From positions 6,569 through 38,568 of the forward strand of contig PFXI01000063.1 in NCBI GenBank assembly GCA_002791575.1: a stretch of 32,000 nt of DNA. Direction: 5' to 3'. The number at the start of each line of letters is the position of its first letter. The first letter of the stretch is position 1. The notes beneath the pieces are model-generated. The model made no database searches. It saw only the letters and a list, made by a program, of their open reading frames with translations, and was not told the DNA's origin. Positions 3,398 through 32,000 of the stretch are shown one piece after another. This DNA is from Zetaproteobacteria bacterium CG_4_9_14_3_um_filter_54_145. Its GTDB lineage: Bacteria > Pseudomonadota > Zetaproteobacteria > Mariprofundales > Mariprofundaceae. The translations under genes were made by a program, and so were the position numbers.

Positions 3398-6300
3398 CTA
3401 GCCGGGCTCGCGCTCCATCTCCACTGCTATCATGCGGGAGACGCCCGGTTCCGGCATGGATACGCCAACCAGTCGATCGGCTTTCTGCATGGTGATCTTG
3501 TTATGTGTGATCGCCATAAACTGAACCCGGTCAGCCAGATCGCGTATCATATCGCAAAAACGACCGACGTTGGCATCATCCAGTGGCGCATCTACCTCGT
3601 CCAGCACGCAGAACGGCGCGGGCTTGATACGGAAAATGGCAAAGACCAGCGCCACAGCTGTCAGCGCCTTCTCTCCGCCTGAGAGCAGGCCTATATCCTG
3701 CAGACATTTTCCCGGTGGCTGGGCAATCACCTCCACACCCGCTGTCAGTACATCATCGGAATCCAGACGCAGCTGGGCCCGTCCACCGCCAAACAACTGC
3801 GGAAAAGTCTGCTGGAAGATGGCATTGGTCTGGTCAAACACCTCGCGAAAACGCTGGCGGGTAGTGCGGTCAATGCGCACGATGGTATCGTTCAATGTCG
3901 ACAGGCTCGCGTCAAGATCAGCCGCCTGCCCGGCCAGAAAACGCTCCCGCTCGCCGGCTTGCTCAAACTCACCTATGGCCAGCAGATTGACCGGCCCGAA
4001 ACGGGCCAGCCGCTCGCCCAGATCCCGACTACGCGTCATAACCACCTCGGCATCCGCGCCGGCAATATCGACAGCCGCCAGCAGTGCCGCAGCTGTCTGC
4101 CGGCAGCGCTGCTTAATTTCGCTTTCCAGCTCCTGCAAACGAGTCACATCCTGAGCCAGAGCTAGCTCAATGCGCTGGCATGCCATGGCACGCTGCTGGC
4201 GCAGGTCTCTGGCATGCCGTTCAGCCTGCTCGGCGGCATGCGCATGCTGTTGCTGCTCATGCCCCTGCTGACGCACGTGATTCATCGCTATATGCGCTTG
4301 CTCCACCCTGCCTGCAGCCGCATCGATCTGCGCATCCAGATCGGAGTGGCGGTTGGCCTGCAACAGCTCCAGCGCTACCCGCGCCAACCGATCTGTATCC
4401 GACTCTCTCTGGGCAAGCAGTCGCTCCCTCTCATCGAGCAAGCGCTGCAACTGCTGGCGCAGGTTGTCTGTTGCCTGCACAAACAGAGCCAGTGATTGCT
4501 CGGATGCAGCCAACAGCGAACGGGCCTGATTCAATCCCTGCTCGCAGATCTGCATCTGCGTGTGGCGCTCATCGAGAGCGGCCTTTGCCCGGTTCAGTTT
4601 GCCGTCATCAATATCCTGCGCCTGTTCAAATTGCTGCTGCCAGTGCCGCTGTTGTTTTGTCACATCATCCAGATCGACCAGCAAACGCTGCAGGCGCTGA
4701 TCCTGCGCCGTTAACTCAACCTGCAACTGTGCAACCGTCGCTGCTGCAGTCTGTGCCCCACTGTCTCCGGAGCTCTTGTCCAGATGAGCCTGCTGCCACT
4801 GCTGCTGTTGCCGCGCAAGCCTGGCCTCTGCCTGCGCAAAGCTTGCGCGCACCACAGCCAGTGCCTGGCCGGCGGCATCCTGCAGTTGCTGCTGCTCTGT
4901 AAGCTGCCTTTTCATGGCCATACGCCTGGCCGTGCGGTTGCCAACGGGCGGCACCAGCCAGCCTTCCGGCTCATAACGCCAGCCATCGCGGCTGACGCAT
5001 GCCACCCCCGAACCGACAGCCTGCTCTATCCGCTCAACCAGAAATACCGGCGAAAATACCGCACGCAACGGGTCATCTGCACTCAGTCCAATAGCATCCG
5101 CCAGCAGGCGGCCGCCATCGGGAGTAGTTGTCAAAGGTGACCTCTGTCGATCTGCGACAAATATCGCCACTGGTGCTGCCGATGCCTGCTCGATGAGTGA
5201 CGGCCACTGATCACGATCATGGTCGGCCGGCACAAGGGCATCGGCGGAGCGCCCGCGCAAAGCTGCGGCGACTGCCGCCTCCAGACCTTCCGGTACATGC
5301 AGCGCCTCATCCATCCACACCGCGCCCTGCCCTTTCAGGGTATCACGCAAGGCGTCAGGCACATCCTGACTGCGTGTGCGCGCTGCCAGCTCCAGCACCA
5401 GACCTGTGCGCTCGCGCAGTAGTGCTTCGGCTTCAGCCAGTGAACAGGCCGCCTGCTCGCGCGCCTGGCGGCAACACTCCAGCTCCTCTGTTGCCAGCGC
5501 CAGCACGTCTCTACTCTCGGCCTGAGTCTGCAGCGCCGTGTTTAACAACTGCTCACTCTCGCTCAGCCGGTGTGAAACGGATCGCTGTTGATGCTGCGTC
5601 TGTTTTAACTGCTCATCCAGCTGCTCCTGCCGCTGTGCTAATCGCTGCATGGCTGCCGCCGCCTGTTCACGCCGCTGCTCTATCTGCTCCCGATCATGTT
5701 TCAGCCGTTCATATTCTGCCAGCAACCTATCGCGCTCGGCACTCTGTTGACGATAACCCTGTAACGCGTTCTGCACAGCAGTTGCAGCCTCTGTGCGCTC
5801 TGCCTGCAGCAGCGTATCGTCCTGCAAATCCAGTGCGGCCTGCGCCTGCTCCAGGTCACCCGTAACCCGCCGGATATGCGCGTTACCCTCTTCTATGCGG
5901 GCTTCCAGAGCATGCTGCCGCTCACTGAGCAATCGTCGCTCACCGGCCATGCGCTCGGCCTGCTGCTGCAGGTCTGCCCGTTGCTGTTCAGCCACACGCA
6001 ATTGCTGCTGAATTTCCTGCGCCTGCTCATCAAACAGCTGCACCTGCGCACGCGCCTCAATACTGACTCGCTCGCAGCCGCTTAACCTGCCGACAGCTTC
6101 CGCCTCATCATGCCGGGCACGACTTAGCTGCTGCTCAATGCCGGCGCTGTTCTCCTGCAGGGCCGCATAGCGTAGCGCCAGCGCCAGCGACTGCAGATGA
6201 GCCATCTCATCCTGCATGCTGCGGAATCGCTCCGCGCGTGAGGCCTGCTGCTTCAGGCTGCGGCACTGGGCGCGCACCTCTTCCAGCAGATCCAGCACAC

Positions 6301-8241: not shown

Positions 8242-8317
<76 letters not shown>

Positions 8318-8358: not shown

Positions 8359-9795
8359 ATGAACACGCCGATGCATCTGTTCAGGCGCACCCTCTCTGCC
8401 GATTGCCTGACTCCGCCGGGCCTTTTCTCACGCATGGTGGAGCGCGGCGACTGCTTCCTGTTTGAATCTGCCGAAGGCGGTGAGCAGTGGGGCCGCTACA
8501 GCATTCTCGGTATCAATCCCGCCTGCCGTGCGACAGCGGACGGTAATCAGACACGTCTGCACTACCGCGACGGCCGTGAAGAGTGCTATGAAGGCGATAT
8601 TCTCGCATGGCTGCGCGAGCACGTGCTGGATGAATCCTTTCTGGCCGAAGATGATCTGCCCTTTGCCGGCGGTGCCGTCGGCTATTTCGGTTATCAGCTA
8701 GTGTCACACTTTGAAGATATTCCGGCCGACCTGCCGGATCCTGTCGGCGCTCCTGAATCAGCCTGCCTGCTGGTCGATCGTTTCATGGTCTTCGACAACC
8801 TGCGCGGCACGCTGACCTGCTGCGTGCGCCTGCCTGCAAATCAGGCAGAGGCCGCTGAAACAGCCCTGAACCGCATGGAGGCAAGCCTCAATGAAGGTGA
8901 GGTAGCCAGCGTACTGAGGCTCGATGCCGATACATCGTTGATCGCAGCACCCCAGGCGCAAACCTCTCAGGCCGATTTTGAGGCGGCGGTAAGCAAGGCG
9001 CGTGAATACATTCTGGCCGGTGACATTTTCCAGGTGGTACTCAGCCAGCGCTTTTCACGCCCGTTAAACTGCGCACCATTCGATATCTATCGTGCCGTTC
9101 GCCATATCAATCCGTCTCCCTATCTATTCTACCTGCATATCGGCGACACCATTCTGGTCGGCTCTTCGCCGGAGATTCTGGTACGTCGAGATATGAACAA
9201 AGCGGTGGTTCGCCCTATCGCCGGCACCCGCCCGCGCGGCAAAACTGCAGCGGAAGACAAAGCGCTGGAGCTCGAGCTGCTGGCCGACGCCAAAGAGCGC
9301 GCCGAGCACGTGATGCTGGTGGATCTGGGCCGCAATGATCTCGGTCGCGTCTGCCAATATGGCACGGTAGAGCTGACATCCTCAATGGTGATCGAGCGTT
9401 ATTCTCATGTCATGCATATTGTCTCCCAGGTTGAAGGCATCCTGCGTGATGATGTTGACTCACTCGACCTGCTGGCAGCCACATTCCCGGCCGGCACCGT
9501 ATCCGGTGCCCCCAAGGTGAGAGCGATGGAGATCATTCATGAGCTGGAGCCTGTAGCACGCGGCCCGTATGCGGGTACCGTCGGCTATATCGGCTTTGGT
9601 GGCCAGCGCATGGATACAGCAATCGCGATTCGCACCGCGGTTATCCACGGTAATGAGGTACATATCCAGGCCGGTGCCGGCATCGTCGCCGATTCGATAC
9701 CCGAGCGAGAGCACATCGAATGCGTGAACAAAGCCACGGCGATGTTCCGTGCCGTGGCACTGGCAGAAGCACAACCGAAAGGGAGAAAGGTGTAA
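8359..9795 (+). CDS. trpE: Anthranilate synthase component I
   Basis: 478 aa. LTP..LF...[19 protein letters not shown] near the N-terminus, and the C-terminal chorismate-binding signature [15 protein letters not shown]...[13 protein letters not shown]. Confidence 0.95.
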
Positions 9796-10408: not shown

Positions 10409-11440
10409 ATGAATGAATCGGTAATGCAGATGATTAAAGATCTGCAGGTAGGCAACGCGATCACGGGCGATGCAACCGAGTCGGTATTCTCCGCCATCAT
10501 GAGCGGTGAAGCGACAGCAGCGCAGATCGGCGCCATTCTGATGGGGCTCTCTATTCGCGGAGAGTCTGCCGAAACGCTTGCCGGTGCTGCCAAAGCCATG
10601 CGTGCCGCGGCAACCCGTATCACACCAAAAGCCTCCGGCCTGATCGATACCTGCGGCACAGGTGGTGACGGCGCCAAAACATTCAATATCTCAACCGCTG
10701 TATCACTGGTCGTCGCCGCCTGCGGCGTGCCTGTTGCCAAGCACGGCAACAGGGCCATGTCCTCCAAATCGGGGGCTGCCGATGTACTCGAGGCCCTCGG
10801 CGTCAATCTGGAGATCACACCGGAACAGGTAGCAGCTTGCATTGATACTACCGGCATAGGCTTTCTGTTTGCCCAGCAACTGCACCCGGCCATGCGCCAT
10901 GCAGGTCCCGTGCGGCGGGAGCTGGGCGTTCGTACACTGTTTAACCTGCTTGGACCTCTGACTAACCCTGCGGCTGCGGAGTATCAGGTACTGGGTGTGT
11001 ATGCGCGTGAAAAACTGGATCTGGTTGCCGGAGCACTGCAGCAACTCGGCATCAGGCGCGCCCTCGTGGTACATGGCCGCGACGGCATGGACGAAATCAC
11101 CACCACCGACATCACCGATGCCGTACTGGTTCAGGCGGGACAAGAACCGATCAACTTTGAGATCGACCCGGCTGCATTCGGCATGCCCTACGCCGCACCT
11201 TCGGCACTGGCTGGCGATGATGCCGCCACCAATGCAGCCATACTGCAGCATATTTTCGCAGGGCAGGCAGGCGCCGGGCGTGATATTGTACTACTCAATG
11301 CTGCAGCCGCACTTTGGGTCGCAGGCAAGGTGGATGGTATCGGTGACGGTCTGGCCATGGCCGCCCGCGCCATTGACTCCGGCAAGGTTCAGCAAACGCT
11401 GAATGAACTCATCGCCTTCACCCGGCAGGCTAATCATTGA
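10409..11440 (+). CDS. trpD: Anthranilate phosphoribosyltransferase
   Basis: 343 aa. The GTGGDG motif (DTCGTGGDGAKTFNIST), KHGNRA and the overall TrpD layout. GAGG SD 7 nt before the ATG. Confidence 0.95.
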   Translation: MNESVMQMIKDLQVGNAITGDATESVFSAIMSGEATAAQIGAILMGLSIRGESAETLAGAAKAMRAAATRITPKASGLIDTCGTGGDGAKTFNISTAVSLVVAACGVPVAKHGNRAMSSKSGAADVLEALGVNLEITPEQVAACIDTTGIGFLFAQQLHPAMRHAGPVRRELGVRTLFNLLGPLTNPAAAEYQVLGVYAREKLDLVAGALQQLGIRRALVVHGRDGMDEITTTDITDAVLVQAGQEPINFEIDPAAFGMPYAAPSALAGDDAATNAAILQHIFAGQAGAGRDIVLLNAAAALWVAGKVDGIGDGLAMAARAIDSGKVQQTLNELIAFTRQANH

Positions 11441-12027: not shown

Positions 12028-12813
12028 ATGACTTCTATTCTCAACGAAATTGCCGCATATAAACGGGGATGGGTGGCTGAGTGCAAACTACGCCGCTCAG
12101 AAGCCGAGTTACTGGCACTGGCCGCAACCCGCACACCGCTTGATTTTTCCGGTGTGCTTTGCGACAACGTGAAGCACAAACAGAATGCAGTCATTGCCGA
12201 GGTTAAAAAAGCCAGCCCGTCTAAAGGTATTATCCGGCCCGATTTTGACCCGGTTGCAATCGCCCGCTCCTATGAAGCGGGCGGCGCAAGCTGCCTCTCC
12301 GTATTGACTGATGTGAAATATTTTCAGGGTGATGACAGCTACGTCAGTGATATACGAGCTGCAGTAAGCCTGCCTCTGCTGCGTAAGGATTTCATGCTTG
12401 ATCCGTACCAGATCATTGAGGCCAAGGCGATGGGAGCAGATGCCATTCTGGTGATCCTGGCCATGCTTGATGATGTGCTTGCACTTGAGCTAACCGCCTG
12501 TGCCCATGAGCTGGGGCTCTCGGTGCTACCGGAGGTGCATAATGCAGCAGAGCTTGAGCGGGCACTGAAGCTGGATACCCGCTTGATGGGCATCAACAAC
12601 CGCAACCTGCACACCTTTGAGACCACACTGGATACGACCATTGAGCTGCTTGCATTGATGCGTGGTGAGCACACGGTAATCACCGAGTCGGGTATCTTCA
12701 CCCGCGATGATATCATGCGCATGAACAGGGCAGGCGTATACGGCTTTTTGATCGGTGAATCGCTGATGCGGCAACCGGAACCGGGTCAGGCTCTGGCTGC
12801 ACTGATAGCTTAA
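12028..12813 (+). CDS. trpC: Indole-3-glycerol phosphate synthase
   Basis: 261 aa. VIAEVKKASPSKG, LSVLTD..YFQG, LRKDF and GINNRNL motifs. Confidence 0.95.
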   Translation: MTSILNEIAAYKRGWVAECKLRRSEAELLALAATRTPLDFSGVLCDNVKHKQNAVIAEVKKASPSKGIIRPDFDPVAIARSYEAGGASCLSVLTDVKYFQGDDSYVSDIRAAVSLPLLRKDFMLDPYQIIEAKAMGADAILVILAMLDDVLALELTACAHELGLSVLPEVHNAAELERALKLDTRLMGINNRNLHTFETTLDTTIELLALMRGEHTVITESGIFTRDDIMRMNRAGVYGFLIGESLMRQPEPGQALAALIA

Positions 12814-28652: not shown

Positions 28653-28689
28653 ATACAGCTGACCCGTGCCTGAACGGATATGCGTTGAT

Positions 28690-30033
28690 ATGAACAAGGC
28701 AACCCTGACGCCAAAAATAATATTCGGCCTTATTGCCCGGCTGATCGCCATTGTACTGTGTGCGGAAATTCTGGTCATGCTGCTGTTCAGTGCGATTGGT
28801 GTTGCCGATCACCTCTCCGAATGGGTGATGGCTATTGCCGATGACATGCTGCTTATTCTGCTATCTGCATGGCCAGTCGCCCTGTGGGTTCTCAACCCGT
28901 TACTGATGCTGAGTAACAAAGCCAGCCTGAAAACGGAAATGCTGGCCGCAGCCCTCGAGCATGCCGGTGACAGCGTCATCATTACCGACCGCTCGGGCAT
29001 CATGCTCTACGTCAATCATGCTTTTGAGCAAACAACCGGATACTCGCGTGATGAGGCCGTCGGAGAAAACCCCAACATACTCCAGTCCGGCCGCCATGAT
29101 GGTCAATTTTATACAGCGATGTGGGATGCATTAACAAGCAGTGGCGAGTGGCAGGGCGAGATGTGGAACAAACGCAAGAGTGGTGAGTTATATCCGCAAC
29201 TGCTGCATATCCGTGCATTTCATGATCAAAAAGGAATCCTGCAATACTATATAGGTACCTTTTCCGACATCTCCGAACGCATTGCGCTGGAGCGCGTCGC
29301 CCGCAAAAGCCAGAAAATCGAAGCTCTGGGCCGGCTGGTTGGCGGCGTTGCACAGAACTTCAACAATATCCTCTCCGGCATTATCGGCAAAGTTTATCTG
29401 GCCAGAAAAAAAACAGACTCCCCTGATGCCATCCGGCATATGGATGACATTCATGAGCTCGGTCAGAACGGTGCCCGCCTGATCAAGCATTTGCTCGATT
29501 TTGCCCACCAGTCACAACAGGAAAAACAACGTCTGTCGTTGAACCTGCTGTTCAAGAATGCTGTACGCGCGGCCAGCATCGACATGCCTGCAGACATACA
29601 GCTGATAACCGATTTTCCGACCAGCGAGCTGAGCATGCATGGCGATCCTGTGCAGCTGGAGCAGATAGCCACGCACCTGCTCACCAATGCCCGTGATGCC
29701 GTGGCTCTGGCTGCAGAGAAAACGATCCGCGTCAGTCTGGAAAAGCAATCATCCAAGCAGTGTCCGTTGCGTGAGCATTGCAGCTGTTGCAGCAACTATG
29801 TGGCCATGCTGACTGTAGAGGATAGCGGCTGCGGTATACCACCGGCAGACCTTGAGCATATTTTCGATCCGTTTTTTACCCGCAAGAAACAGGATGAAGG
29901 CGCCGGCCTTGGTCTGTCGATATGCAGCGGCACGGTGGAAGCCCATGGCGGCATGATCCATGTTGAGAGTGAACAGGGAAAAGGCGCGCGCTTTATTGTC
30001 TGCCTCCCCCTGGCTAACAGCGGTGAGAAGTGA
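28690..30033 (+). CDS. PAS-domain sensor histidine-kinase-like protein with a degenerate H-box
   Basis: Two N-terminal TM segments, a PAS domain (SVIITDRSGIMLYVNHAFEQTTGYSRDEAVGENP..), a DHp region GRLVGGVAQNFNNIL, and N (LLTNARDA), G1 (VEDSGCGI), F and G2 (GAGLGLS) boxes. Confidence 0.85.
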   Translation: MNKATLTPKIIFGLIARLIAIVLCAEILVMLLFSAIGVADHLSEWVMAIADDMLLILLSAWPVALWVLNPLLMLSNKASLKTEMLAAALEHAGDSVIITDRSGIMLYVNHAFEQTTGYSRDEAVGENPNILQSGRHDGQFYTAMWDALTSSGEWQGEMWNKRKSGELYPQLLHIRAFHDQKGILQYYIGTFSDISERIALERVARKSQKIEALGRLVGGVAQNFNNILSGIIGKVYLARKKTDSPDAIRHMDDIHELGQNGARLIKHLLDFAHQSQQEKQRLSLNLLFKNAVRAASIDMPADIQLITDFPTSELSMHGDPVQLEQIATHLLTNARDAVALAAEKTIRVSLEKQSSKQCPLREHCSCCSNYVAMLTVEDSGCGIPPADLEHIFDPFFTRKKQDEGAGLGLSICSGTVEAHGGMIHVESEQGKGARFIVCLPLANSGEK

Positions 30034-30484: not shown

Positions 30485-31414
30485 TCAGATATAAATGGAT
30501 GCAGTCAGACAATGTAATGAACCAGCATAGTGTAGAGTCGGAGAATAGATGTATTCGACAGTAAATCCGTGATGCGATAATAATGCTGTCGTTTCTGATA
30601 TATCGCATCTTACAGTAATGTCATAGCGGGGTAGCAATAAACGTTTACCAATCTGAAGCCAGTTAACAAGGCTACCGTATCTGTTCCCGTCGCTTCGAAT
30701 CGGTATTTTTATAATCTCAATTGTTGCATCGTAATTTTTGATTTGCTGAATAAGCGATTCACACCTGTTTCGATCACTCTTTGATGACAGATTCCAGGCC
30801 ACTGCGATCAGGTTTGCCTTCAATACCCGCACATGAACATCTGCATGACCGGTCATTTCCTTGCTGAATCCTGAAAAAACCAGCCAGTGCCGGATGCCTA
30901 ATGCCGCTTTACAGTTTTCAAGATCATTTACAGTGAAGTGATTATGCTTAAGCACATCATTACTGACCAGCATCAAACCTCTGCTACCGACTACCATGTT
31001 CCCCTGTGGCAAAAAAGGGATGGGGGAGAGAGGATGTTTTGTTGCACAGATCGTATGAAACAACTGATTATCATTAGGGCGCTCATCCTGAACGGCCAAC
31101 GGAATACACCAGCGAACAGCCCCCTTAACCTTGATAGCAACAGGTGATCGGTCACGTATCCAGGGCGAGTCGAATGCTGCGGTCACAATGGAAAAATGAT
31201 CCGGCCTTTCCCGGGTTTCAATAAAGGCCTGACTGAATGCGCTGTCGGATGAGAGCAATATGACCCCACAATATCGCGACACACGGCTGGCGATCTCCTC
31301 GAGCAACGAGGTAAGGTCACATTGATAGTGTGGCACCATAATCGCATCGGGTATGCGGTAGTCGGTAATGACCAATCCAGATTCAGCCATCACGTGCATC
31401 TGATCATTCACCAT
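30485..31414 (-). CDS. Guanidino-group-modifying enzyme of the PAD_porph / agmatine deiminase-like fold
   Basis: 309 aa with no signal peptide. The order of motifs matches the family: SPWIRDRSP (W-x-R-D), QGNMVVGSRGLMLVS, TGHADVHVRV (G-H-x-D), and C-terminal AGSLHCLT (H-C-x-T nucleophile). The exact start is uncertain (31414, or in-frame Mets 5 or 8 codons later). Confidence 0.6.
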   Translation of the reverse strand: MVNDQMHVMAESGLVITDYRIPDAIMVPHYQCDLTSLLEEIASRVSRYCGVILLSSDSAFSQAFIETRERPDHFSIVTAAFDSPWIRDRSPVAIKVKGAVRWCIPLAVQDERPNDNQLFHTICATKHPLSPIPFLPQGNMVVGSRGLMLVSNDVLKHNHFTVNDLENCKAALGIRHWLVFSGFSKEMTGHADVHVRVLKANLIAVAWNLSSKSDRNRCESLIQQIKNYDATIEIIKIPIRSDGNRYGSLVNWLQIGKRLLLPRYDITVRCDISETTALLSHHGFTVEYIYSPTLHYAGSLHCLTASIYI

Positions 31415-31455
31415 CCTTCAATCCAGGTAAGAATTCAGGAGAATTTCTTTGCAAA

Positions 31456-31491
31456 GGGGTGAGACGCATGAACGTTTCACACGACTCACCC
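31456..31491 (-). promoter_or_regulatory. Hairpin between the repeat-protein gene and the deiminase-like gene (possible leaky terminator or processing site)
   Basis: On the minus strand: GGGTGAG-(21 nt)-CTCACCC followed by CTTTGC. The stem is 7 bp and the U-tract is weak. Confidence 0.3.
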
Positions 31492-31584
31492 TGTACTGCA
31501 GCTTGCAACAATAATGCTTCCAAAGCGGTTAAGCATACGCTGAAAACTCAAATATATTCTCGCAAACCTTGAGTCACCTGACAG

Positions 31585-31857
31585 TTAATACCGTTTGCCG
31601 GCAGGCCTGACAGCACGAATACCTGCAGCTGTATTGGAGCGTACTCCTGCCGGTTTAACAGCCCGTACGCCTGCAGTCGCTGTATTGGCACGCACACCGG
31701 CAGTTCTGTTGGCACGCATGCCCGCTGTTGTATTAGATCGCATTCCGGCCGGTTTTGTAGCACGAATACCTGAAGTCGCGGCCTGAGTGATGCCCGGCAT
31801 CGATACAAATGCCGCAGTTGCCATAAGTAGTGCCTTGGTGAGTTTATTTTTTTTCAT
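31585..31857 (-). CDS. Secreted, highly cationic octapeptide-repeat protein (8 x A-G-x-R-x-x-x-x)
   Basis: GGAGGA SD 4 nt before the ATG at 31857. Sec-type signal peptide MKKNKLTKALLMATAAFVSMPGITQA. The mature part, ATSGIRATKP AGMRSNTT AGMRANRT AGVRANTAT AGVRAVKP AGVRSNTA AGIRAVRP AGKRY, has no Asp or Glu. Confidence 0.7.
   Translation of the reverse strand: MKKNKLTKALLMATAAFVSMPGITQAATSGIRATKPAGMRSNTTAGMRANRTAGVRANTATAGVRAVKPAGVRSNTAAGIRAVRPAGKRY
31588..31776 (-). repeat. In-frame tandem ~24-nt coding repeats (8 units) inside the repeat-protein gene
   Basis: Codon-by-codon reading of the minus strand. All six frames lack stops here, which explains the overlapping ORF-track entries. Confidence 0.85.
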
Positions 31858-32000
31858 AGAGTCCTCCATATACAGATGATATCGGGCACATTCGACAGCA
31901 TCAGATGAACGAAAAACATCCCACTTTCATGCTATTTACCCGCCCCCTTTTCACCGGCCATTTCCGGGCTCAACCACGCGACCCCAGTTCCGGTCACTCA

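Follow-up and report, generated by a model that had tools for sequence, protein, structure and literature searches.

Enzymes of the Pfam family PF04371 (PAD_porph) have the fold of guanidino-group-modifying enzymes, hereafter abbreviated as GME, and the characterized members that we know of are agmatine deiminases and the peptidylarginine deiminase of Porphyromonas gingivalis (PPAD), all of which are hydrolytic deiminases. Here we analyze a member of this family encoded in a stretch of 32,000 nucleotides (nt) of the contig PFXI01000063.1 from Zetaproteobacteria bacterium CG_4_9_14_3_um_filter_54_145, hereafter the window, to which coordinates refer unless another locus is named. Its gene forms a self-contained cassette of two genes, one for a GME-fold enzyme and the other for an exported protein or peptide, which in the window is a small arginine-rich peptide. 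An earlier note, made from the letters of this DNA alone, had regarded the two genes as a candidate pair for peptidyl-arginine modification. Comparison of homologous sequences now lends very strong support to a functional pairing of enzyme and partner, and it suggests, with a probability that we place at roughly 0.55, that before export the enzyme would act on arginines of the partner and modify them, most likely to citrulline.

Closest Described Systems

PPAD (structures 4yt9 and 5ak7) has in common with the window enzyme the Pfam family and the fold of the catalytic domain. It is, however, a secreted virulence factor with multiple domains (a signal peptide, an Ig-like domain and a C-terminal domain for type IX secretion), broad host targets and no dedicated substrate encoded next to it, whereas the window enzyme is a single-domain protein of 309 amino acids (aa), compared with about 420-438 aa for PPAD chains, which is predicted to be cytoplasmic, is 15% identical to PPAD and is tied to one leader-bearing partner. 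PPAD acts on peptidyl-arginine independently of calcium (bioRxiv 10.1101/2020.07.16.207027) and, according to the study of the lasso peptide citrulassin, is the sole characterized member of PF04371 that is directed to proteins, namely those of the host. Closest to the window enzyme by both sequence and structure are the agmatine deiminases (AguA) of Campylobacter jejuni (6b10) and Helicobacter pylori (3hvm), which possess the same catalytic motifs; the window enzyme is shorter, lacks about eight residues after the WIRD motif when aligned to 6b10, and has no polyamine context. A bacterial enzyme that deiminates an arginine of a ribosomal peptide has been described in Streptomyces for citrulassin, but this PAD belongs to the human-type family PF03068 and its gene lies far from that of its substrate, whereas the window enzyme belongs to PF04371 and has its putative substrate encoded next to it. 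The citrulassin study did not find PF03068 PADs in neighborhoods resembling those of peptides that ribosomes synthesize and that are modified post-translationally (RiPPs), and it names PPAD as the one other bacterial PAD to have been characterized.

With regard to the order of events, the nearest precedent is that of bufferins, RiPPs with Sec signal peptides that are modified by MNIO enzymes in the cytoplasm, exported by Sec and then freed of the signal peptide, which is dispensable for the modification; they have been described as rare examples of maturation along the Sec pathway (PMC11626156). The cassette would have the same order of events, but the bufferin enzymes (MNIO plus DUF2063) and their chemistry (Cys to thiooxazole) are unrelated, and in our case no part of the partner is as well conserved as the core of its signal peptide. 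Repeated action on arginines of a precursor from the same gene cluster is documented for peptide arginases such as OspR, in landornamide-type RiPPs (PMC10028609; PMC12703449), but these enzymes have the arginase fold, unrelated to that of GMEs, and produce ornithine. The elements of the cassette, an enzyme of PAD type and a precursor with a tailoring enzyme and Sec export, belong to kinds already described. Literature searches combining the leader motif, PF04371, the agmatine deiminase family or GME with RiPPs, precursors or Arg-rich signal peptides retrieved no description of the pairing, which agrees with the earlier note, whose author did not recognize it as a described system.

Genetic Linkage of the Enzyme with a Leader-Bearing Partner

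Homologous loci were collected from a scan of genomes, one per species, which yielded 25 loci, and from a scan of metagenomes, which added 35. The genome loci span Zeta-, Gamma- and Alphaproteobacteria, Myxococcales, Rokubacteria, Chloroflexia and Desulfobulbaceae, and the loci of the enzyme family come from at least six lineages at the level of phylum or class. Cultured carriers belong to the Roseobacter group (Mameliella alba CGMCC 1.7290, Mameliella sp. CS4, Salipiger pentaromativorans P9 and Aestuariicoccus sp. MJ-SS9). At 24 genome loci, a same-strand open reading frame (ORF) bearing the leader is found immediately upstream or downstream of the enzyme gene. Most loci have a small upstream ORF whose N-terminus reads x-[K/R]-[I/L]-x-x-x-L-x-x-A-T-A-A-F-V-S-[V/I/M]-P and continues with an R/K-rich sequence, while five genome loci without an upstream partner encode a larger leader-bearing protein 77-126 nt downstream of the enzyme; in several Alphaproteobacteria the downstream partner is a full-size exported protein, for instance a porin of the Porin_2 family. 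The earlier note had raised the idea that a repeat peptide would always lie upstream of the orthologues. Adjacency stands, since an Arg-rich, leader-bearing partner is essentially always next to the enzyme, but the repeats are not conserved and the partner is not always small or upstream.

A hidden Markov model (HMM) of the leader, trained on the genome loci, was run in six frames on 405,666 nt from about 60 related loci (E≤0.01). It gave 48 matches, all of them on the strand of the enzyme and adjoining its gene, with none elsewhere in these 405,666 nt; about 14 of them represent independent metagenome loci that were absent from the training of the HMM. Measured from the enzyme match, the leader lies 208-519 nt upstream at most loci and 81-130 nt downstream at those with a downstream partner, with values of about 1.4 kb upstream where the enzyme has an N-terminal fusion; in L025, a fragmentary locus, it is found some 0.5 kb downstream. 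The loci that are negative with the HMM are all compromised: L006/L028, L045, L047 and L056 end at a contig edge, L031 and L032 have a disrupted leader with the Arg-rich part kept, and L041 has a weak yet recognizable leader. Every locus with adequate flanks on both sides has a partner. Because the orthologues essentially always adjoin an Arg-rich, leader-bearing partner, a coincidental adjacency of the two genes, which the earlier note had left as a caveat, is excluded.

No other conserved neighbor, such as a protease, a transporter or a protein with a RiPP recognition element, emerged when all ORFs in the loci that are 90 aa or longer were compared with one another, and the only further synteny was local to the Mameliella/Salipiger lineage; also MNIO (DUF692) and DUF2063 genes are not conserved near the cassette. 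Spacers between the two genes are mostly of 2-50 nt, indicating a tight operon. A search of the leader profile (alignment A2, 42-aa N-termini) against a database of 5.8 billion proteins returned no match at E≤10, the motif being too short for a database of such size.

Some loci show peculiarities of their own. Behind a leader that is broken by a stop or frameshift, the downstream partner at L031 (positions 3886-4446 of that locus), and likewise at L032, still has the Arg-rich segment AQDGRRRVDAGRR; the break could be due to decay or to a sequencing error. Two paralogous cassettes with non-repeat partners of 147-149 aa are present in one Chloroflexia metagenome-assembled genome (L015:5479-6885 and L021:5555-6893); the enzyme of L021 is split into two ORFs of 200 and 191 aa, for which a frameshift, decay to a pseudogene or a fault of the assembly could be responsible.

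The Partner Gene and the Common Features of Partners

In the window, the partner or precursor gene extends over 31585..31857 on the minus strand and encodes 90 aa plus the stop, with a match to the leader profile at E=9.5e-14. From its first ATG the ORF would span 31585..31869 and encode 94 aa; the alternative ATG at 31857, giving a product that starts with MKKNKL, is the better call, because the sequence contains a GGAGG ribosome-binding site (31863..31867, minus strand) 5 nt before it. The leader MKKNKLTKALLMATAAFVSMPGITQA covers 26 aa (31780..31857, minus strand) and has the features of a Sec-type signal peptide, with a Lys-rich n-region and the conserved h-region ALLMATAAFVSMP; a signal peptidase I site is predicted, by heuristic assignment, at T-Q-A/A (the slash indicates the cut), with ATSGIR as the first residues past it. 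The core that follows (31588..31779, minus strand) is the proposed substrate region and comprises 64 aa with 10 Arg, 3 Lys, no Asp or Glu and no Cys (pI 12), arranged in eight [A/S]-G-[I/M/V/K]-R units with a period of 8 and one spacing of 9. These values reproduce what had been read in the earlier note, namely a 90-aa precursor with a Sec-like leader, eight Ala/Ser-Gly-x-Arg repeats and a mature part of 64 aa with about 10 Arg, 3 Lys and no acidic residues.

Eight G-x-R motifs were reached in none of 20,000 composition-preserving shuffles of the core. Tandem Repeats Finder (TRF) detected no DNA-level tandem repeat behind the octapeptides, which indicates that their periodicity is kept at the level of the protein; the possibility that a DNA tandem repeat generated them was rejected on the same ground. 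The closest relative of the window cassette is that of locus L001, which has a 91% identical enzyme and a precursor (L001:5583-5879) with nine octapeptide units instead of the eight in the window (31585-31857), the differences in the flanking codons being mostly synonymous. Over 78 alignable codons there are 28 synonymous and 6 non-synonymous differences, and the precursor is therefore a real coding gene under purifying selection. Scans of the peptide against Pfam and NCBIfam gave no real match (PsaK at 14.9 bits is spurious), while the exact products of 90 and 94 aa are missing from a collection of 15 billion proteins, from which it follows that gene callers never recorded those boundaries.

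Comparison of about 40 partners from several phyla gives the leader consensus L-A-x-A-T-A-A-F-V-S-V-P, with the h-region retained throughout; the conserved features are this leader and the Arg-rich stretch right after the predicted cleavage site, rather than the octapeptide repeats. The mature parts are unrelated to each other and include repeat peptides (with the motifs A-G-x-R, G-K-R-V or P-G-[I/L]-R), a Porin_2 porin (L011, 97 bits), a protein with a C-terminal Peptidase_S74 domain (L016) and globular domains without assignment (L015, L021, L041 and L043). The Porin_2 match of the porin starts at residue 53, which makes the Arg-rich piece an addition at the N-terminus. Judging from these sequences, partners begin with some 50 aa that form a portable module, composed of a Sec signal with conserved core and an Arg-rich stretch that is expanded to eight A-G-x-R octapeptides in the window. 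Most loci, like the window with its core of 64 aa, encode small peptides, but several partners are exported proteins of 280-470 aa, for which reason the system is better called a cassette for post-translational modification of a protein or peptide. No NCBIfam match was obtained with the globular partners or with the CxxCxxCC fusion domains considered below.

Plausible A-x-A sites followed by Arg-rich sequence are exemplified by AKA/QSVRRRTETLPR, ANA/QAVRRRVGRRVPRR and ARA/QTPVRRRVDPRVP. Counted over the initial 18 residues of the predicted mature part, net charge averages +4.0 in 28 partners (from 0 to +8) and is at least +2 in 26 of them, and each of the 28 contains at least two Arg. Arginine accounts for 14.7% of the core in 20 non-redundant small partners, where it is preceded by Gly at position -2 in 36% of cases (a 2.8-fold enrichment) and by I, M or K at -1; the window core has the same Arg context, G(-2) and hydrophobic/K(-1). 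Porins among the partners show the leader to be a true signal peptide of the Sec pathway. Signal peptides normally evolve in such a way that the cargo is better conserved than the hydrophobic core, whereas here the hydrophobic core of the leader is far better conserved than the cargo, which is the signature of a recognition element. The combination of a conserved leader with unrelated cores, the precursor gene adjoining the enzyme gene in 48/48 matches, is of the RiPP type.

Family, Fold, and Active Site of the Enzyme

The enzyme (PIP02352.1, annotated as 'hypothetical protein') is encoded by 30485..31414 on the minus strand. The earlier note had placed it among PAD_porph/agmatine deiminase proteins from the order of its motifs, W-x-R-D, G-H-x-D and H-C-x-T, which correspond to WIRD 85-88, GHAD 189-192 and HCLT 301-304, and this placement is borne out by HMM, alignment and predicted structure. 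PF04371 is matched at E=5.3e-13 with 49.3 bits (cut-off 25) over positions 32-318 of the 321 in the profile; it is the sole Pfam match of the enzyme at E≤1, with PF03068 not matched, and is carried by all 90 homologues. Neither window protein matches a specific NCBIfam model. AguA function was considered and rejected, for the TIGR03380 equivalog scores 16.1 bits against a cut-off of 381.8, over residues 39-96 only, and aguB is missing among the window ORFs scanned.

The first motif, W85-I-R87-D88 (31151..31162, minus strand), contains the guanidinium-binding Asp and extends to R89-S-P91; G189-H190-A-D192 (30839..30850, minus strand) contains the catalytic His and the second guanidinium-binding Asp; and H301-C302 (30509..30514, minus strand) contains the invariant nucleophile Cys within GSLHCLTAS (H301-C302-L-T304). 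They align, respectively, with WIRD, H-x-D and GSLHC of 6b10. In an alignment of 25 diverse homologues that are 36-63% identical (A1), there is no variation at D88, D192, H301 and C302, and H190 is kept in at least 90%. Further invariant residues are W85 and R87, and specific to the family are R89 and P91 (giving WIRDRSP), R112, D115, N139, N251, W252 and Q254. The homologue P0028 (locus L007) keeps the Cys and both Asp but has Tyr at the position of the catalytic His190 (ITAYADVH).

A search of the PDB with the profile of the 25 homologues found the C. jejuni agmatine deiminase 6b10 as the best match (E=1.4e-12) and PPAD at about 2e-7, with the WxRD, HxD and GSLHC motifs aligned. The AlphaFold2 model of the enzyme (pLDDT 91.5, pTM 0.89) has the alpha/beta-propeller fold and with Foldseek retrieves agmatine deiminases at TM 0.78-0.81 and PPAD at 0.80-0.82 (E about 1e-17 to 1e-20), whereas human-type PADs reach only TM 0.5-0.66; sequence identity to agmatine deiminases and PPAD alike is 15-18%. 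The sequence reveals no hydrophobic N-terminus, as already noticed in the earlier note, and residues from about 13 onwards belong to the fold; on these grounds the enzyme is predicted to be cytoplasmic.

A profile search carried exhaustively through 1.84 billion representatives delimits a small and sharply bounded family of about 30 clusters at 50% identity, in that only 31 reach E≤1e-30; full-length scores fall from at least 184 to at most 124 bits at its boundary. Annotation of the enzyme goes no further than 'hypothetical' or 'agmatine deiminase family protein'. The nearest sister clade (P0115-P0127) consists of PAD_porph proteins of 360-440 aa with WxRDYGP and GGAxHC motifs and with N-terminal signal peptides or sequences like those of lipoproteins, and is a group of secreted relatives.

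A subclade of the family has the enzyme fused to an N-terminal PF03692 domain, a CxxCxxCC domain of the YkgJ/FliB-like kind that putatively binds Fe or Zn (L041, L043, L048, P0091 and P0093). These fusion enzymes have 554-572 aa, with PF03692 N-terminal and PAD_porph C-terminal (L041:1016-2731, L043:928-2625 and L048), and their partners, of 190-230 aa, consist of the leader, a ARRRLRRRRASVP stretch and a globular domain. FliB is a cytoplasmic, membrane-associated enzyme that methylates lysines of flagellin before secretion and carries a similar Cys motif (PMC8598068). The likeness lies in the cytoplasmic modification of basic side chains before secretion and, for the fusion subclade, in the Cys motif; fold, chemistry and route (flagellar type III) differ, and the window enzyme itself has no CxxCxxCC domain. 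By this analogy, the fusion is suggestive of a protein-directed role before export. In locus L058 (656-4479), a distant PAD_porph paralogue, 24% identical and outside the family, lies between a gene for an AAA+ ATPase and a separate gene for a CxxCxxCC domain, and the association of the two domains therefore recurs as separate genes.

Proposed Mechanism and Alternative Explanations

From gene order, conservation and predicted fold we infer that the partner is the substrate of the enzyme and that its conserved leader would be the element recognized in the cytoplasm. The guanidinium groups of the partner arginines would then be modified, most probably by hydrolytic deimination to citrulline, and the modified protein would leave by the Sec pathway, with signal peptidase I cleaving the leader. 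Citrulline is the most probable product because the characterized PF04371 enzymes are all hydrolytic deiminases.

Basic residues just past a signal peptide are inhibitory for Sec export, as reflected in the concept of the export initiation domain, in the positive-inside rule and in the Sec-avoidance of Tat c-regions. This leads us to a tentative extension of the mechanism, which we advance with considerable doubt: the Sec signal core might double as a RiPP-style leader, and the Arg segment might block export until its deimination to neutral citrulline licenses Sec translocation. Such a checkpoint, equally doubtful, would be post-translational and could be grafted onto unrelated cargo such as repeat peptides, porins and other exported proteins. 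The extension would fit especially the porin-type partners, whose signal n-regions are about neutral (MVDR..., MPDR..., MSSDR...).

Several observations weigh against deimination of the partner before export, or against parts of it. The enzyme is equally far from agmatine deiminases and PPAD, so that homology does not discriminate the class of substrate, and its catalytic set is common also to GME amidinotransferases and dihydrolases, which makes other products possible. Two partners (L002 and L007) are Lys-rich instead of Arg-rich, just 2 Arg lie near the N-terminus of two Chloroflexia partners, and the signal-peptidase sites of the partners, from which the mature residues were counted, were assigned heuristically by eye. 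Within the family the net charge of the enzyme lies anywhere between -18 and +24, an inconsistency for which we dropped the argument of electrostatic complementarity to a cationic substrate. Finally, the signal peptide of bufferins is dispensable for modification, and a signal peptide therefore need not be the recognition element.

Among the alternatives, the linkage would be the same if the enzyme performed another chemistry on the partner, either conversion of peptidyl-arginine to ornithine as in dihydrolases or amidino transfer as in amidinotransferases. Compatible with this are the Cys-His-Asp set and the propeller fold, which are those of the whole GME superfamily including both these groups, the identity of just 15-18% to characterized deiminases and the presence of its own invariant residues (R89, P91, R112, D115, N139, N251, W252 and Q254). 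We consider it unlikely, given that significant matches at the family level are restricted to PF04371, whose characterized members are hydrolytic deiminases, and that the known peptide maturases converting Arg to Orn, of OspR type, use the different arginase fold (PMC10028609). A small guanidino metabolite such as agmatine could instead be the substrate, with the partner linked as a pseudo-substrate regulator, a membrane tether or a periplasmic protein dependent on the product. Genuine agmatine deiminases (6b10 and 3hvm) are indeed among the best matches by structure and sequence, and an enzyme of only about 300 aa has no recognizable extra domain for binding peptides; yet the AguA equivalog score is 16 bits versus the 381.8 required, aguB, transporter and polyamine genes are not conserved near any locus, and the only conserved neighbor, in which unrelated cargo proteins have received the leader together with an Arg-rich stretch, would be hard to explain unless it is this Arg-rich module that matters to an active site directed at Arg, all of which renders a small-molecule substrate rather improbable.

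It is very improbable that the enzyme is a dedicated cytoplasmic chaperone or export gatekeeper which binds the leader or the Arg segment, with catalysis secondary or absent. The conservation of the signal h-region across phyla would suit a binding interface, and P0028 has Tyr in place of the catalytic H190, but the Cys, both Asp and, in at least 90%, the His are kept over the 25 homologues of A1, and such conservation among divergent sequences implies selection for catalysis. As to chance adjacency, or a small ORF that is no gene, the absence of the exact 90- and 94-aa products from the collection of 15 billion proteins and the capacity of GC-rich DNA to yield Arg-rich ORFs by chance might speak for it, but with 48/48 leader matches adjoining the enzyme on the same strand and 0 elsewhere, the 28:6 ratio of synonymous to non-synonymous differences versus L001, the well-spaced GGAGG and a G-x-R periodicity found in 0/20,000 shuffles, its probability is negligible. 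Modification of the partner by the enzyme, most likely to citrulline, is the reading that we prefer. The idea of the earlier note was put to all the computational tests that its author had listed as able to refute it, and it withstood them.

Spacer and Flanking Genes in the Window

The two co-oriented genes of the minus strand are separated by 170 nt that contain a hairpin, confirming the spacer of about 170 nt reported in the earlier note. Folding of this spacer (z-score -3.6 vs shuffles) places a long and strong GC-rich RNA hairpin, GGGUGAGUCGUGUGAAACGUUCAUGCGUCUCACCCC, at 31456..31491 on the minus strand, followed by UUUGC. Lying between the genes of precursor and enzyme, the hairpin is a candidate for an attenuator or a leaky terminator; it has no Rfam match and is not flagged by a simple terminator scan. 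The 170-nt spacer with its hairpin is confined to the window lineage and L001, other loci having mostly the short spacers mentioned before. The hairpin was accordingly rejected as a core regulatory element of the system, being kept only in this closest relative.

The cassette is flanked by a convergent gene for a PAS-domain histidine kinase (28666-30033, plus strand) and a divergent gene of response-regulator type (L026:1841-2386, minus strand), which is seen in the contig continuation (L026) and in L001; with these flanks, the unit here consists of exactly two genes. The PAS histidine kinase is not retained downstream in L001, the relative with 91% identity. L001 has near its cassette a bifunctional protein with acyltransferase and GNAT domains (L001:8882-10594, minus strand; PF19576 + PF13444), which is not found in the window and whose architecture resembles that of the ornithine-lipid synthase OlsF.

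In keeping with the earlier note, neither aguB (CN-hydrolase) nor any other obvious gene of polyamine pathways was found among the window ORFs scanned. The sole window gene that might be related to polyamines is one of the histone-deacetylase family (PF00850; 21626-22573, plus strand), a family that includes acetylpolyamine amidohydrolases; some 8 kb separate it from the cassette, and it is not conserved at other loci. Elsewhere in the window, a tRNA gene (8245-8317, minus strand; Rfam RF00005, 62.7 bits) is located just upstream of a tryptophan-biosynthesis cluster with trpE-like (8359-9795), trpD-like (10409-11440) and trpC-like (12028-12813) genes.

Significance

The rarity of the family, its vague annotation and the unrecorded peptide of the window may be the reasons why the system has been overlooked. 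It is experimentally accessible, since it consists of two genes, has cultured carriers in the Roseobacter group and offers a mass shift as read-out. If the proposed function is true, this would be the first peptidylarginine-modifying enzyme of PF04371 type with a dedicated, genetically linked bacterial substrate, and a second class of enzymes would join the few maturation systems that use the general Sec pathway, with the core of a signal peptide under selection as a recognition element. To our knowledge, citrullination is hardly known as an endogenous modification of bacterial proteins; it would here touch proteins of the envelope, porins included.

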